A stretch of DNA of 64,000 bases from Abditibacterium sp. (GTDB lineage Bacteria > Armatimonadota > Abditibacteriia > Abditibacteriales > Abditibacteriaceae). Location of the stretch: contig CBDFFF010000001.1 in assembly GCA_965246705.1 (NCBI GenBank), positions 413,253-477,252 on the forward strand, written 5' to 3'. The notes below the pieces were generated by a model that was not told the origin of the DNA, did no database searches, and worked only from the letters and a program-made list of their open reading frames with translations. The position numbers were made by a program, and so were the translations under genes. Positions 28,969-39,500 of this stretch are shown piece after piece; position 1 is the stretch's first letter; each line of letters begins with the position of its first letter.

Positions 28969-29043
28969 TGTCCATAGAGGGACTCGAGCCCCCAACATCG
29001 ACGGTCTAAACGTCGCGCCTCTGCCAGATTGGGCTATATGGAC
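28969..29043 (-). tRNA. tRNA-Leu(TAG), short variable loop, T54>C
   Basis: GTCCATA/TATGGAC acceptor; D arm GCC..GGC; CGACG-TTTAGAC-CGTCG anticodon arm; 5-nt variable loop; GGGGG-CTCGAGT-CCCTC T arm; A73; no CCA. Confidence 0.8.
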
Positions 29044-29047
29044 GAAC

Positions 29048-29120
29048 TGTGCGCGAAGGGAGTCCTCTCTTACTCTGTTGGTTTTAAATCAACTGTCTCT
29101 GCCAGTTGGACTACGCGCAC
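29048..29120 (-). tRNA. tRNA-Leu(TAA)-like, short variable loop, T-loop motif replaced (possible pseudo-tRNA)
   Basis: GTGCGCG/CGCGCAC acceptor; GTC..GAC D stem; GTTGA-TTTAAAA-CCAAC; T arm reads AAG-AGAG-GACT-CCCTT instead of AAG-GGTTC-GACT-CCCTT. Confidence 0.65.
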
Positions 29121-29129
29121 AAGTTGTAC

Positions 29130-29202
29130 TATCCGCGAAAGGACTCCTCTTTCATCTTCCAGAATCTCGTTCTGGCGCCTCTACCAGTTGGGCCACGCGG
29201 AC
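29130..29202 (-). tRNA. tRNA-Leu(GAG)-like, short variable loop, U33 lost, T-loop motif replaced (possible pseudo-tRNA)
   Basis: GTCCGCG/CGCGGAT acceptor; GCC..GGC D stem; CCAGA-ACGAGAT-TCTGG; T arm GAA-AGAG-GAGT-CCTTT. Confidence 0.6.
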
Positions 29203-29209
29203 AAAAAAG

Positions 29210-29281
29210 CAGTCGGGGTGGGGCTCGAACCCACGATAACCTCATTAACAGTGAGGCGCGTTACCGCTTCGCCACCCGACT
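29210..29281 (-). tRNA. tRNA-Asn(GTT)
   Basis: AGTCGGG/CCCGACT acceptor; G73; CCTCA-CTGTTAA-TGAGG; GTGGG-TTCGAGC-CCCAC; canonical cloverleaf; no CCA. Confidence 0.92.
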
Positions 29282-29285
29282 ACAA

Positions 29286-29355
29286 TTGCCCGACCCCGGC
29301 TCGAACGAGGAAAGAAGATCCAAAGTTTTCCGTCATACCACTTGACCATCGGGCA
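29286..29355 (-). tRNA. tRNA-Gln(TTG)
   Basis: TGCCCGA/TCGGGCA acceptor (U1-A72); GTC..GAC D stem; GAAAA-CTTTGGA-TCTTC with one mismatch; 3-nt variable loop; CCTCG-TTCGAGC-CGGGG. Confidence 0.8.
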
Positions 29356-29365
29356 GAAACACAAC

Positions 29366-29403
29366 AAAAAAGGCCCGTCGCTGAGGTTTCAGCAACGGGC
29401 CTT
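29366..29403 (-). terminator. intrinsic terminator / attenuator upstream of the tRNA cluster
   Basis: Minus strand AAGGCCCGTTGCTGA-AACC-TCAGCGACGGGCCTT-TTTT: 15-bp stem with one G.U, ending 10 nt before tRNA-Gln. Confidence 0.85.
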
Positions 29404-29425
29404 GAGAATGAAAACGAAATCTAAC

Positions 29426-29524
29426 TTATCGCTTCTCTGCGGCACGGAAACCCGAACGACGAACGGAACCTTGCAGTTGGAGTTGCAGGTTCTGGCGATT
29501 CAGATTCAGTGCTAAAGCGAACAT
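29426..29524 (-). CDS. putative 32-aa Leu/Asn/Gln-rich leader peptide MFALALNLNRQNLQLQLQGSVRRSGFRAAEKR
   Basis: ATG TTC GCT TTA GCA CTG AAT CTG AAT CGC CAG AAC CTG CAA CTC CAA CTG CAA GGT...CGA TAA; 13 of residues 4-18 are L/N/Q; lies between promoter and terminator. No clear SD. Confidence 0.7.
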   Translation of the reverse strand: MFALALNLNRQNLQLQLQGSVRRSGFRAAEKR

Positions 29525-29557
29525 AAGGGGCGGCGCCCACGCGCCGAACTCATAGAA

Positions 29558-29586
29558 ATTATAAACGCGCTTCGATAAATATGCAA
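29558..29586 (-). promoter_or_regulatory. sigma70-type promoter driving leader + tRNA cluster
   Basis: Minus strand TTGCAT (29586-29581), exactly 17 nt, TATAAT (29563-29558). Confidence 0.8.
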
Positions 29587-36558: not shown

Positions 36559-39500
36559 TTACTCCGTGATGCTCACTCGCATTTCATCGCTGGTGGCGCG
36601 CACTTCGGGGGCATACATGGCATAGCCGTTGGTGGGCAAGGCATGGAATGTTCCCGGCACTTCGGCGCGCACTCGATAGCGTAGCACGCGACGGCCTTGC
36701 GGCAGGTTGCTCACGAAGAACGCGGTTTTGTCGTCGCGCATTTCGACGTAGTAGCTCAGGCTATCGTTCGAGTCGTAGCCGCTGCGCACGTCCACCGGCT
36801 CGAAGCCCGCCGCCTTCATGTCCTCGAACAGCAGATATTCGTAGTCGTTTTTCGCGTTGACCACGAGTTCGACTTCGATCAAATCGCCCGATTTGACCGT
36901 CGCGCCGTCTTTGATCGCTTCGCGTTTGTATTCCGGTGCGGGCGGAATGCTGTCGCGCGGCGGGAATGGCGGCCTGATGCGCGGCATCATTGCGACCCCT
37001 ACCTTGCCTTGCGTTTGCGGCTGTCCCTGAGTGGGGTTAGCGTCGGGTTTGGTTTCGGCGCGCGTCAGCTTGTAGAAAGTGCGGCTCACTTCGAGTTCGT
37101 TGCCGCTACCCTTGATGGGGTCTTCGCGCGAGAACGAGTCTTCGTAGGCGCTGAAATACAGCTTGCCGCGACCCTTCTTCTCGATGGTAAGGGTGTTCGA
37201 CTTGTCGCCCGATTCGAGGAACAAGTCGCCCGCACGGAAGCGGTTATCGAACCACAGCGCGTTATCTGCCGTGATGTGATAGGTGCGCGCCAGTTGACCG
37301 TTGAGATTGACGTTCACCGTCATATCCACATCGAGTTCGTGGTGATGGGCCACATAAGCGGCGAGGGTGTACACGACTTCGGCGGTTTCTTTGGTGCTGC
37401 GCCAGTGGTTGCCGCGCGAGTTGAGCGTGAGCCACTTGGCGAACATCGGCACCAATCTGTTGTCGGGTTCTATCTCGTCGAAGGCGCGAAGCGCGAGCGC
37501 CACGGTTTCGACATCGTTGTTCCACCAATACCAATAGCTCGCCTGGGTCTGGTAGCGCGCTGTGCCGTTGGCGGCGTCCACCTTGACGGTGTTTTCGAGG
37601 TTGCGAACCAATACGTTCGCTTTGTCCTTTTCGTTCGCCTTGAACAGCGTCATCGCCAGATACGCTTTGGAAAGTGGGGTCAGGCGGTCGCGCTGTTGGA
37701 ACAAACGTCCTGCGGCGATGCCTTTGGTCGTGCCGTCTACGTTGATTTGGGCCAGAGCGTAGGCCATGTAAGCCAGCAAATGCAAGTTATCTTCGTCCTT
37801 CATTTGCTTTTGCAGATAGGACCGTCCGCGATTCAACATGCTCTGGTCGCCTTCGATTTTCGCCAGTCGCGCCTGAGACAGGCCGTAGACGACGTAGGCC
37901 GACATATATTCGTCGCTTTCCGAGGCGCCGGGGAACCAGCCCCAGCCACCATCGGAGCGCTGCATCGAAGCGAGGCGTTGCAAGCCTTCCTTCGTCATCT
38001 GCTTAATCTTGCCGCCGTCATAAATCGGGTTGTTGCTGCGGTTGTGATACCACATCTGCGAGGCCATCTCGTCTAGATCGCGCCCGCCCGGTTCACCTTT
38101 GGGAAAGGTGTAGCCCGAATTTTTGACGCGAGTTCCCACCGATTCGGCTTTGGCTTCTTTGGAGTAGGCCTGAGCGCGGGCGCGAAGCGTTTGCAGGTTC
38201 ACACCCGACGTTTGTAACGAGCGCTCGACCAGAGCCGAGGGCAGGAAGCGCGACATGGTTTGCTCGACGCAGCCGTAGGGATAGTCGGACAGGTAGGGCA
38301 GGGCATCCAGTGCCGTCGCCGCCAGCGACGGGTTCATTTGCACGTTGAGTTGCGTGGCGCCGAACTGCCGCTGTTTCGGGAAGGTAAGCGGAATTTTCGT
38401 GGTGCCGTCCACTGTAATGACGCCGGTATGGGCGGCGAACTGCGGCGCTCCATGCGTGAGCACAGGAAAGCTGAGTCGTACCGCATCGGAATCGGTGCCC
38501 GTTTTGGCCGATACCTGAATGGAGGTTTGGCCTTCCTGCGTGACGTTAAACAGCCAGTCAATGCGCTTTTCGCCACCAGCGGGAATGAGAGTCGTGTTTT
38601 GCGCGCGGGCTCCCGCTGCCTCGCTCGAAAGTTCGAGGCCGGGATGCGCGGCGGCCAGTGCGTAGGACACGCTCTGCTCTTTGTCGGTGTAGTTGTGGAT
38701 GTTCGCCGAAACCACGACTTTGTCTTTTTCAACAAAGAAGCGGGGGGCTTGAAGGCGAACCAGCAAATCTTTCTTCGTCGCGGCGTCGGTATCGGCGCTG
38801 CCGACTTCGACGGTGTTGGTGAGGCCGCGCGCTGTCGCGTGCCACTGCGTCAGGCTGTCGGGGAAGGTCACTTTGACCGTTGCCGTGCCGTTGTCGGTGA
38901 TGACCGCTGGCGACCAGTAGGCGGTTTCGGCGAAGTTGGTTCGCACCTGTCCCGAATCGCCGGTGCCGGGGGCTTCTGCTGCTGCACTTTTAGCCATCCG
39001 CAGTTGAGTGGATGGCGCCGCTGGTGCCATCATTGGCATCGGCGCGGCGGCATCGGCAGCCATAGTGCCATTAACTACCGGGGTGGTGAAGAAGGAGCGG
39101 GAAAGGCCTGCTGTGCTGCCAGGTAGACCACCACCTATACCATACGGATACCAGCCGAAGTTGCCGGGTTGGAGTTGCAATTGGCCGAAGTCGTCGGGCA
39201 ATTCCCAACTGTGGGTTTCGATGTTCGGGTCGGTGGGGGCTTCGCGGCGCGGGTCGATGTTTCCTGAACGACTTGAATCGAGGTTGACCGAGTTGCCGCG
39301 ACGGTCGCCGTAGAAGAAGGAGCGCACATCGGGGGTGGAATCGCTTTGGATATAGAACAGGCTGGCGTCGATGAGCGCGAGAGAAACCTCGGCGCGGGCC
39401 GGAGCGCCGCTCCAATCGCGGGCGCTGATCTGGAAGGTGCCGGTTTCGCCCGGTTTGTAGGTCGCTTTGTCGCTTTTCACGTTTAGCTTCAACAACTGGC

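Follow-up and report, generated by a model that had tools for sequence, protein, structure and literature searches.

Loss of the T loop in two adjacent type I tRNA-Leu genes of an Abditibacterium tRNA operon: a plausible templated mutation followed by copying

Two adjacent leucine tRNA-type genes in a 64,000-nt stretch of DNA from an Abditibacterium sp. (referred to as the window) carry AGAGGA where their relatives have GGTTC(G/A)A. We lean toward an account in which a single templated lesion arose in the Leu(GAG) gene and was later copied into the Leu(UAA) gene, with the GAG gene being kept as a functional tRNA-Leu lacking the elbow. The evidence for this account comes from the orthologous genes of related species, the match between the altered bases and nearby sequences, and the slow divergence of the altered GAG gene.

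The window lies in a 91%-complete genome of 8.0 Mb in 27 contigs (G000), which we compared with its nearest species representative, Abditibacteriota bacterium IAD-21 (G012; complete genome AP024152.1, from a cultured bark isolate), and with further Abditibacteriota genomes (G002, G004, G006, G007, G009, G010, and G011). The minus strand at 28969–29355 holds five consecutive tRNA-type genes in the order Gln(UUG), Asn(GUU), GAG, UAA, and Leu(UAG), with the following features.

29286–29355, minus strand: tRNA-Gln(UUG); Rfam 42.2 bits, vs 50–67 bits in relatives
29210–29281, minus strand: tRNA-Asn(GUU), canonical; Rfam 66.6 bits
29130–29202, minus strand: type I tRNA-Leu(GAG)-like gene, 73 nt, C33, T loop replaced; Rfam tRNA 29.8 bits
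29138–29153, minus strand: altered T arm of the GAG gene, GAAAG-AGGAGT-CCTTT, read from the sequence
29048–29120, minus strand: type I tRNA-Leu(UAA)-like gene, 73 nt, T loop replaced; Rfam tRNA 36.5 bits
28969–29043, minus strand: type I tRNA-Leu(UAG), 75 nt; called by ARAGORN, Rfam 52.4 bits
28930–28962, unstranded: hairpin terminator common to the tRNA operon and the convergent dnaJ, from hairpin prediction

Arrays of this kind occur in seven other genomes of the genus besides G000, and the order Gln, Asn, Leu(GAG), Leu(UAA), Leu(UAG/CAG), Leu(CAA) is common to G012, G002, G006, G007, G004, and G009. All Leu genes in the arrays of the genus are 73–74 nt long with a short variable region. Single Leu genes are missing in places, namely UAA in G002 and CAA in G000, G012, and G002; the UAA gene has been cleanly deleted from the G002 array (L004/L028; G002:C170, about 36750–36760). 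No Gln gene was detected in the arrays of G007 and G011, the latter being reduced to Asn and Leu(UAA), and the nearly complete G010 yielded no array. The array is flanked by mnmA, hrcA-grpE-dnaJ, a Hva1_TUDOR gene, and an FGGY sugar kinase, and dnaJ is likewise its syntenic neighbor in G012 and G002. Since a class II tRNA-Leu set (UAA twice, CAG, CAA, and GAG) and second Gln and Asn copies are present elsewhere in G000, the array is supernumerary.

The other three genes also vary among species. Specifically, the array Gln(UUG) gene (29286–29355) has an A30×C40 anticodon-stem mismatch and a 4-nt variable region in G000 only, and acceptor pair 4:69 of Asn(GUU) is C-G in G000 and U-A in G012 and G002. 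Leu(UAG) has C54 (loop CTCGAGT) and a one-base D-loop insertion, both specific to G000; an earlier reading of the window from its letters alone (the sequence-only reading) had pointed out this T54>C change, and G012 and G002 do have T54.

Both altered genes keep most of the tRNA body. The GAG and UAA genes each have a 7-bp acceptor stem, A73, G18G19 in the D arm, a 5-bp anticodon stem, and a 5-nt variable region, in line with the earlier description of their acceptor and D stems as intact. Their T loops are of 6 nt (AGGAGT and AGGACT, respectively), as opposed to the canonical 7 nt, and have no T54-Psi55-C56. The T arm of the UAA gene reads AAGAG-AGGACT-CCCTT, and in both genes the T stem is paired at four of its five positions, with an A52×C62 mismatch. 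The ancestral T arms deduced from relatives are GGAGG-TTCAAGT-CCTCT for GAG (as in G002) and GAGGG-TTCGAGT-CCCTT for UAA (as in G012), and these states agree with the GGTTC-to-AGAG (5-to-4 nt) replacement that the sequence-only reading had proposed for both genes. In an alternative register, the GAG T arm has a 5-bp stem (AGAGG/CCTTT) and the triloop AGT; RNAfold gives four or five pairs for both registers in all three lesioned genes (GAG and UAA of G000 and GAG of G012). The canonical register keeps pairs 49:65, 50:64, and 51:63 in all three, and these are the pairs contacted by EF-Tu.

ARAGORN, the use of which had been suggested along with the original observation, calls only Gln, Asn, and Leu(UAG) of the five genes and neither the GAG nor the UAA gene. 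Both of the latter pass the Rfam RF00005 gathering score of 29 (29.8 bits for GAG and 36.5 bits for UAA), while their orthologues score 47–59 bits; the canonical UAA orthologue in G012 has 50.4 bits. In four species (G000, G012, G002, and G004), the GAG gene has C33 instead of the near-universal U33. Judging from the aligned copies, C33 is a family trait separate from the lesion, as it is also present in copies with a canonical T loop.

The altered genes have the attributes of type I tRNA-Leu, namely a Leu anticodon, a short variable region, A73, U8/A14, and orthology to canonical members. Specifically, the GAG gene has canonical orthologues in G002, G006, G007, and G004 and a lesioned one in G012. 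An alignment of 29 type I Leu genes from 12 genomes has 97.4% of its cells paired and double changes in 17 of 20 pairs. Genes of this type occur throughout the phylum, in long arrays and singly, and have ~80% identity over 60–72 nt to annotated tRNA-Leu genes of Streptomyces phages and Mycobacterium prophages; in Streptomyces coelicolor, type I tRNA-Leu is leucylated (PMC6614811). A covariance model of the family matched every tRNA at ≥60 bits and did not separate the family by score; the family was mapped with ARAGORN and a D-arm motif on fetched loci.

Across the phylum, ~100 distinct D-arm-matched genes were inspected, and the only type I Leu genes in that set without GTTCRA were the GAG, UAA, and UAG genes of G000 and the GAG gene of G012. 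The T loop was lost altogether only in the GAG and UAA genes of G000 and the GAG gene of G012. Within G000, 60 of the 64 ARAGORN calls have GTTCRA, the exceptions being the array Leu(UAG) and three calls that are apparent false positives. When one genome per GTDB species was scanned with a pattern combining the lesion and the acceptor stem, the matches were IAD-21 and four chance sequences that do not resemble tRNAs, with no other case; metagenome scans with a 38-mer of the UAA gene and a 30-nt piece of the terminator found no close relatives.

The sequence-only reading had advised looking for the AGAG T arm in orthologous arrays of other strains, and this proved informative: the arm is also present in the GAG gene of IAD-21, where the UAA and UAG genes are canonical, while the GAG gene of G002 is canonical. 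The GAG lesion is known from G000 and the independent complete genome AP024152.1, and the UAA lesion from the G000 assembly alone.

Other tRNA genes came to light in the course of this mapping. A 73-nt type I tRNA-Leu(UAG) lies at G000:C21:1060360-1060432 (L050:8361-8433), with an identical copy in G012 (L051:2008-2080); it has a class II Leu-like D arm and a canonical T loop. ARAGORN found no class II Leu(UAG) in the 91%-complete G000, and this type I gene may thus serve as the housekeeping tRNA for CUA; other species of the family also have type I Leu(UAG) genes that stand singly. Located 6 kb from it, at G000:C21:1054299-1054374, is a gene of the tRNA-Ile(UAU) type whose D arm is unusual (Rfam 41.8 bits). 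ARAGORN also calls, at G000:C22:584206-584282, a tRNA of 77 nt (Rfam 47.6 bits) in which the anticodon has four bases (CTGG) and the T arm is canonical. In other genomes of the phylum, apparent lone tRNA 5′ halves (GTAGCTCAG..GGTAGAGC) without a 3′ half lie beside long tRNA arrays (L036:1342, L046:1352, and L048:3619; minus strand).

The form of the altered GAG arm suggests how it may have arisen. In G012, this arm, AGAGGA-G-TCCTCT, is a perfect palindrome, and a single template switch on a G002-type ancestor, anc[:52] + revcomp(CCTCT) + anc[58:], yields the G012 sequence exactly. The switch swaps G52–A57 for AGAGG, the complement of the 3′ T-stem strand CCTCT, and covers four substitutions and one deletion at once. 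From templates inside the T arm, 42 of the 1024 5-mers (about 4%) can be reached; the fit would be only moderately improbable by chance and suggests a template switch, short of proof. The model assumes a G002-like ancestor and leaves a nearby T to A change in the variable loop unexplained.

A comparison of three flanking genes (1233 codons) groups G000 with G012 to the exclusion of G002, on 97 shared derived sites vs 66 and 57. Because of this sister relationship, we infer that a single origin of the GAG lesion in the ancestor of G000 and G012 is the most economical reading. The lesion would thus go back to one event in the GAG gene of the ancestor shared by G000 and IAD-21, a templated multi-base mutation that put the complement of CCTCT in the place of G52–A57 and turned the T stem and 7-nt loop into a palindrome. 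Templated mutations at imperfect inverted repeats and RNA hairpins are well documented (PMC7202029, PMC8794818, PMC8604942). As a source of the GAG lesion, an intra-hairpin template switch would be simpler than any of the origins listed by the sequence-only reading.

The UAA gene appears to have acquired its altered arm by a different route, and the relevant segment is as follows.

29061–29076, minus strand: 16-nt patch of the UAA gene, from the variable region to the T loop, delimited by comparison with the G012 orthologue

All differences between the UAA genes of G000 and G012 fall inside this patch, with 0 in the other 58 nt. The segment GAGAGGACTCC of the UAA gene is identical to the ancestral GAG T arm when the latter is reverse-complemented, and the AGAGG in this segment complements CCTCT of the GAG gene and not CCCTT of the UAA gene. 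Because its own 3′ strand is CCCTT, the UAA lesion was not self-templated. An inverted copy leaves 3 point changes over and a direct copy leaves 4, vs 8 substitutions and 1 deletion with no copying, and the inverted copy also accounts for the center base C in the UAA arm. The GAG donor is 82 nt upstream of the UAA gene, with a match of 11 nt if inverted or of 6+3 nt if direct. No donor accounts for G44A, C45G, and G49A in the patch, and the inverted and direct versions are one base apart. A whole-genome BLAST search for a second copy or donor of the altered arm returned chance 12- to 13-mers only.

The hallmarks of copying between paralogues are found together in the UAA gene: an identical tract nearby, a canonical orthologue in G012, and clustered changes. 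Since the patch matches the GAG arm and the G012 UAA gene is canonical, the shared lesion is attributed to copying. In the proposed sequence of events, 7–11 nt of the altered GAG arm would have been copied into the UAA gene later and in G000 only, through an inverted template switch or else through a short gene conversion accompanied by a single point change. The direction of copying, from GAG to UAA, and the recent date of the UAA lesion are what the distribution among species points to. The sequence-only reading had reasoned that random decay would rarely produce the same lesion twice; the two lesions do appear to be non-independent, with a template switch in the GAG gene followed by a UAA patch that matches the GAG arm. 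Its suggestion of gene conversion likewise holds in the broad sense of copying between paralogues, given the match of the UAA patch to the GAG T arm and a UAA gene in IAD-21 that has stayed canonical.

We next considered whether the altered GAG gene has drifted since the two species separated. Between G000 and G012, 260 of 630 fourfold sites (0.41) and 20 of 44 array-spacer positions (45%) are different. In comparison, the lesioned GAG genes differ at 5 of 73 sites (binomial P = 4e-11), and the intact array neighbors at 2–4 positions per 70–74 nt. The GAG changes comprise a 6:67 change (U.G/C-G), a joint change of loop positions 32 and 38, and a compensatory change at 50:64 (G-C/A-U), and none of the five breaks a pair. 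The 10-nt AGAGGAGTCC of the altered gene is the same in both species. With 5 of 73 sites changed against 0.41 of fourfold sites and no pair broken, the GAG gene does not look like a freely decaying pseudogene, which would show a neutral rate and broken pairs.

From this comparison, the lesioned GAG gene appears to be under purifying selection and probably specifies a working, if odd, RNA. The argument for selection holds only if the lesion predates the split of G000 and G012, the two genomes that carry it; a recurrent hotspot mutation, separate and recent in each of these two lineages, would undo it. Under the preferred account of a single origin, the altered GAG gene would have stayed under selection, evolving as slowly as the adjacent intact tRNAs.

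In G000, four of the five array genes have potentially damaging changes (Gln, with its mismatch and short variable loop; UAG, with C54 and the insertion; and the two lesioned genes). Relaxed selection on the whole G000 array, as gauged by lineage-specific change counts, was also considered; it was weakened by outgroup polarization, which made several of the “G000-only” states ancestral.

A conserved −10 box, a leader ORF, and a strong terminator occur together at 29366–29586 on the minus strand, directly upstream of the tRNA operon, with conservation across seven species. The latter two are as follows.

29426–29524, minus strand: 32-codon leader ORF (MFALALNLNRQNLQLQLQ...) with many Leu, Asn, and Gln codons, ahead of the array, where 7 species conserve it
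29366–29403, minus strand: intrinsic terminator, putative attenuator, directly upstream of the first tRNA; 15 pairs and a T run

Of the first 18 codons of the leader ORF, 14 are Leu, Asn, or Gln. The terminator is identical in G012 and G002, and an equivalent hairpin is found in G006, G007, G004, and G009. The Leu codons of the leader co-vary with the anticodons of the array: G002, which has lost the UAA gene, has TTT at the position of the single TTA in the other species; the leader of G009, which has no GAG gene, lacks CTC and CTT; and all genomes with a GAG gene, lesioned or not, have a CTC or CTT codon in the leader. Together, the leader and terminator look like ribosome-mediated attenuation of the tRNA operon, and their codon content points to an operon that would be switched on when decoding of the leader codons slows. 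Because the leader codons follow the content of the array, the Leu genes of the array would act through their anticodons. To our knowledge, no case of ribosome-mediated attenuation of a tRNA operon has been described.

As for the product of the altered GAG gene, the most likely reading of our analysis is a type I tRNA-Leu that has no normal elbow but would still be processed and leucylated. Such an elbow-less tRNA-Leu would decode with altered, probably reduced, ribosomal performance. In S. coelicolor, deletion of U55 and C56, deletion of G18 and G19, and the U54C:A58G change hardly affect leucylation of type I tRNA-Leu(CAA), a tolerance of elbow changes in which the type II species differ from the type I (PMC6614811). 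Because leucylation in Streptomyces tolerates elbow mutations, charging could extend to a type I tRNA-Leu that lacks the T loop; E. coli LeuRS, according to work cited in the same paper, depends on the elbow (PMC6614811).

The array could instead contain ordinary tRNA pseudogenes, dead and drifting in a redundant operon, the identity of the two lesions reflecting only templated mutation and copying. This is unlikely in our estimation. ARAGORN misses both genes and their Rfam scores are at the threshold; housekeeping class II Leu(GAG) and Leu(UAA) genes are present elsewhere in G000; array genes have been lost in relatives; and G000 has other damaging changes. Moreover, in the Anabaena trn operon, 3 of 26 genes are regarded as pseudogenes, no tRNA from them being detectable (PMC8421152). 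Such decay is nevertheless at odds with the GAG gene, in which 5 of 73 sites changed (against 41% at fourfold sites and 45% in spacers), the pairs are unbroken, and the new loop is the same in both species; the UAA gene, with a lesion that appears to be recent, has 0 changes in the 58 nt outside the patch. The sequence-only reading had named ordinary pseudogenes as the outcome that would overturn its view, and the strong conservation of the lesioned GAG gene argues against that outcome.

A purpose-built non-decoding RNA is rather unlikely as well, a shade more so than pseudogenes: the altered genes would serve as a decoy for, or an escape from, a toxin, as an uncharged mimic in leader feedback, or as a donor for a non-ribosomal transferase, and would have spread because they are useful. 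In staphylococci, the non-proteinogenic tRNA-Gly departs from the usual form in its D and T regions. In favor of this reading, conservation covers both the lesioned gene and its new loop, a second gene has gained the same arm, the operon looks stress-inducible from its leader ORF and terminator, and some known toxins cleave the T loop, or else tRNA-Gln and tRNA-Asn (PMC9086364). Against this, Pfam showed no toxin or aminoacyl-tRNA-using enzyme in the seven neighboring ORFs with matches (two others had no match), the variant is found in two genomes only while ~100 relatives are canonical, and conservation of the anticodon is equally expected of a decoder. A use of the purine-rich arm as a Shine-Dalgarno sequence for a downstream ORF was rejected, since neither strand has a start codon suitably spaced from it. 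More speculatively, and to us doubtful, the AGAGGA arm might be an adaptive redesign that is charged by LeuRS but invisible to elbow readers or toxins, or a decoy or regulator, produced from a stress-inducible operon with a leader peptide and spreading by templated copying.

Both remaining explanations had been raised by the sequence-only reading. That the lesion is an error of sequencing or assembly in a repetitive tRNA array is highly improbable: the locus is inside a 501-kb contig and occurs once in the genome, the three Leu genes differ too much from one another to collapse, and the GAG lesion is found in two independent assemblies, one of them a complete genome, which disposes of the proposal for the GAG gene; in its favor is the UAA lesion, seen in one assembly. 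Integrases use tRNA 3′ halves, and nothing beyond this general habit favors a scar of an integrase or mobile element targeting tRNA T arms, which we regard as the least probable of all. No integrase or mobile-element domain was found with Pfam in the nine flanking ORFs scanned (two of them without matches), no duplicated tRNA 3′ segment was seen at the locus, the flanks are housekeeping genes with dnaJ syntenic in G012 and G002, and the replaced bases are fully explained by local templates; with no integrase, no duplicated 3′ end, and synteny kept, this suggestion fell away.

The preferred account, in which one templated lesion in the GAG gene was copied into the UAA gene, bears on a loop that is among the most conserved features of cytoplasmic tRNAs. 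If true, a loop-less gene under selection would show that the body of a type I tRNA-Leu is useful without the elbow. The locus would also be a clean natural example of one template switch rewriting a structured RNA in a single step, and the movement of the product to a paralogue mimics convergent evolution.

Type I tRNA-Leu and accessory tRNA operons are already known, and on its sequence the T-loop-less natural variant would depart from their known members. The window genes resemble type I tRNA-Leu (S. coelicolor tRNA-Leu(CAA), Fan et al. 2019, PMC6614811; phage and prophage genes) in their 5-nt variable region, Leu anticodons, U8/A14, and Leu-like D loop; however, known type I tRNA-Leu has a normal 7-nt T loop, whereas the window genes have a 6-nt purine-rich loop or, in the other register, a triloop. 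As a whole, the array recalls L-arrays such as the Anabaena sp. PCC 7120 trn operon (Santamaria-Gomez et al. 2021, PMC8421152), which are likewise supernumerary, duplicate housekeeping tRNAs, and have some odd or non-functional members. Conditional expression, a property of L-arrays, is suggested for the window operon by the leader ORF and terminator. L-arrays have at least 20 genes, whereas the window array has five, with no RNA-repair genes seen, and, unlike L-arrays, it adjoins dnaJ in the three closest species. The window operon is also apparently controlled by a leader ORF and a terminator, with codons matching the array, a control that the available part of the L-array report does not describe (PMC8421152).

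The loss of elbow contacts and the manner of the mutation have parallels elsewhere. In animal mitochondria, tRNAs whose T loops are reduced or missing function together with factors that have co-adapted to them. Like them, the altered genes have lost the elbow contacts between G18G19 and T54-Psi55-C56 and kept the acceptor and anticodon arms; unlike the mitochondrial case, 60 of the 64 ARAGORN calls in G000 are canonical. The GAG lesion is comparable to quasipalindrome template switches (PMC7202029; Monttinen and Loytynoja 2022, PMC8794818), in which a substitution cluster and a one-base deletion come from one copy of the opposite arm, and the center base differs between the GAG and UAA genes (G/C), as in the spacer inversion described along with inverted-repeat homogenization (PMC8604942). 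However, quasipalindrome cases end with a perfected stem, whereas the event in the window would have destroyed a functional tRNA loop, with its product then moved to a paralogue.
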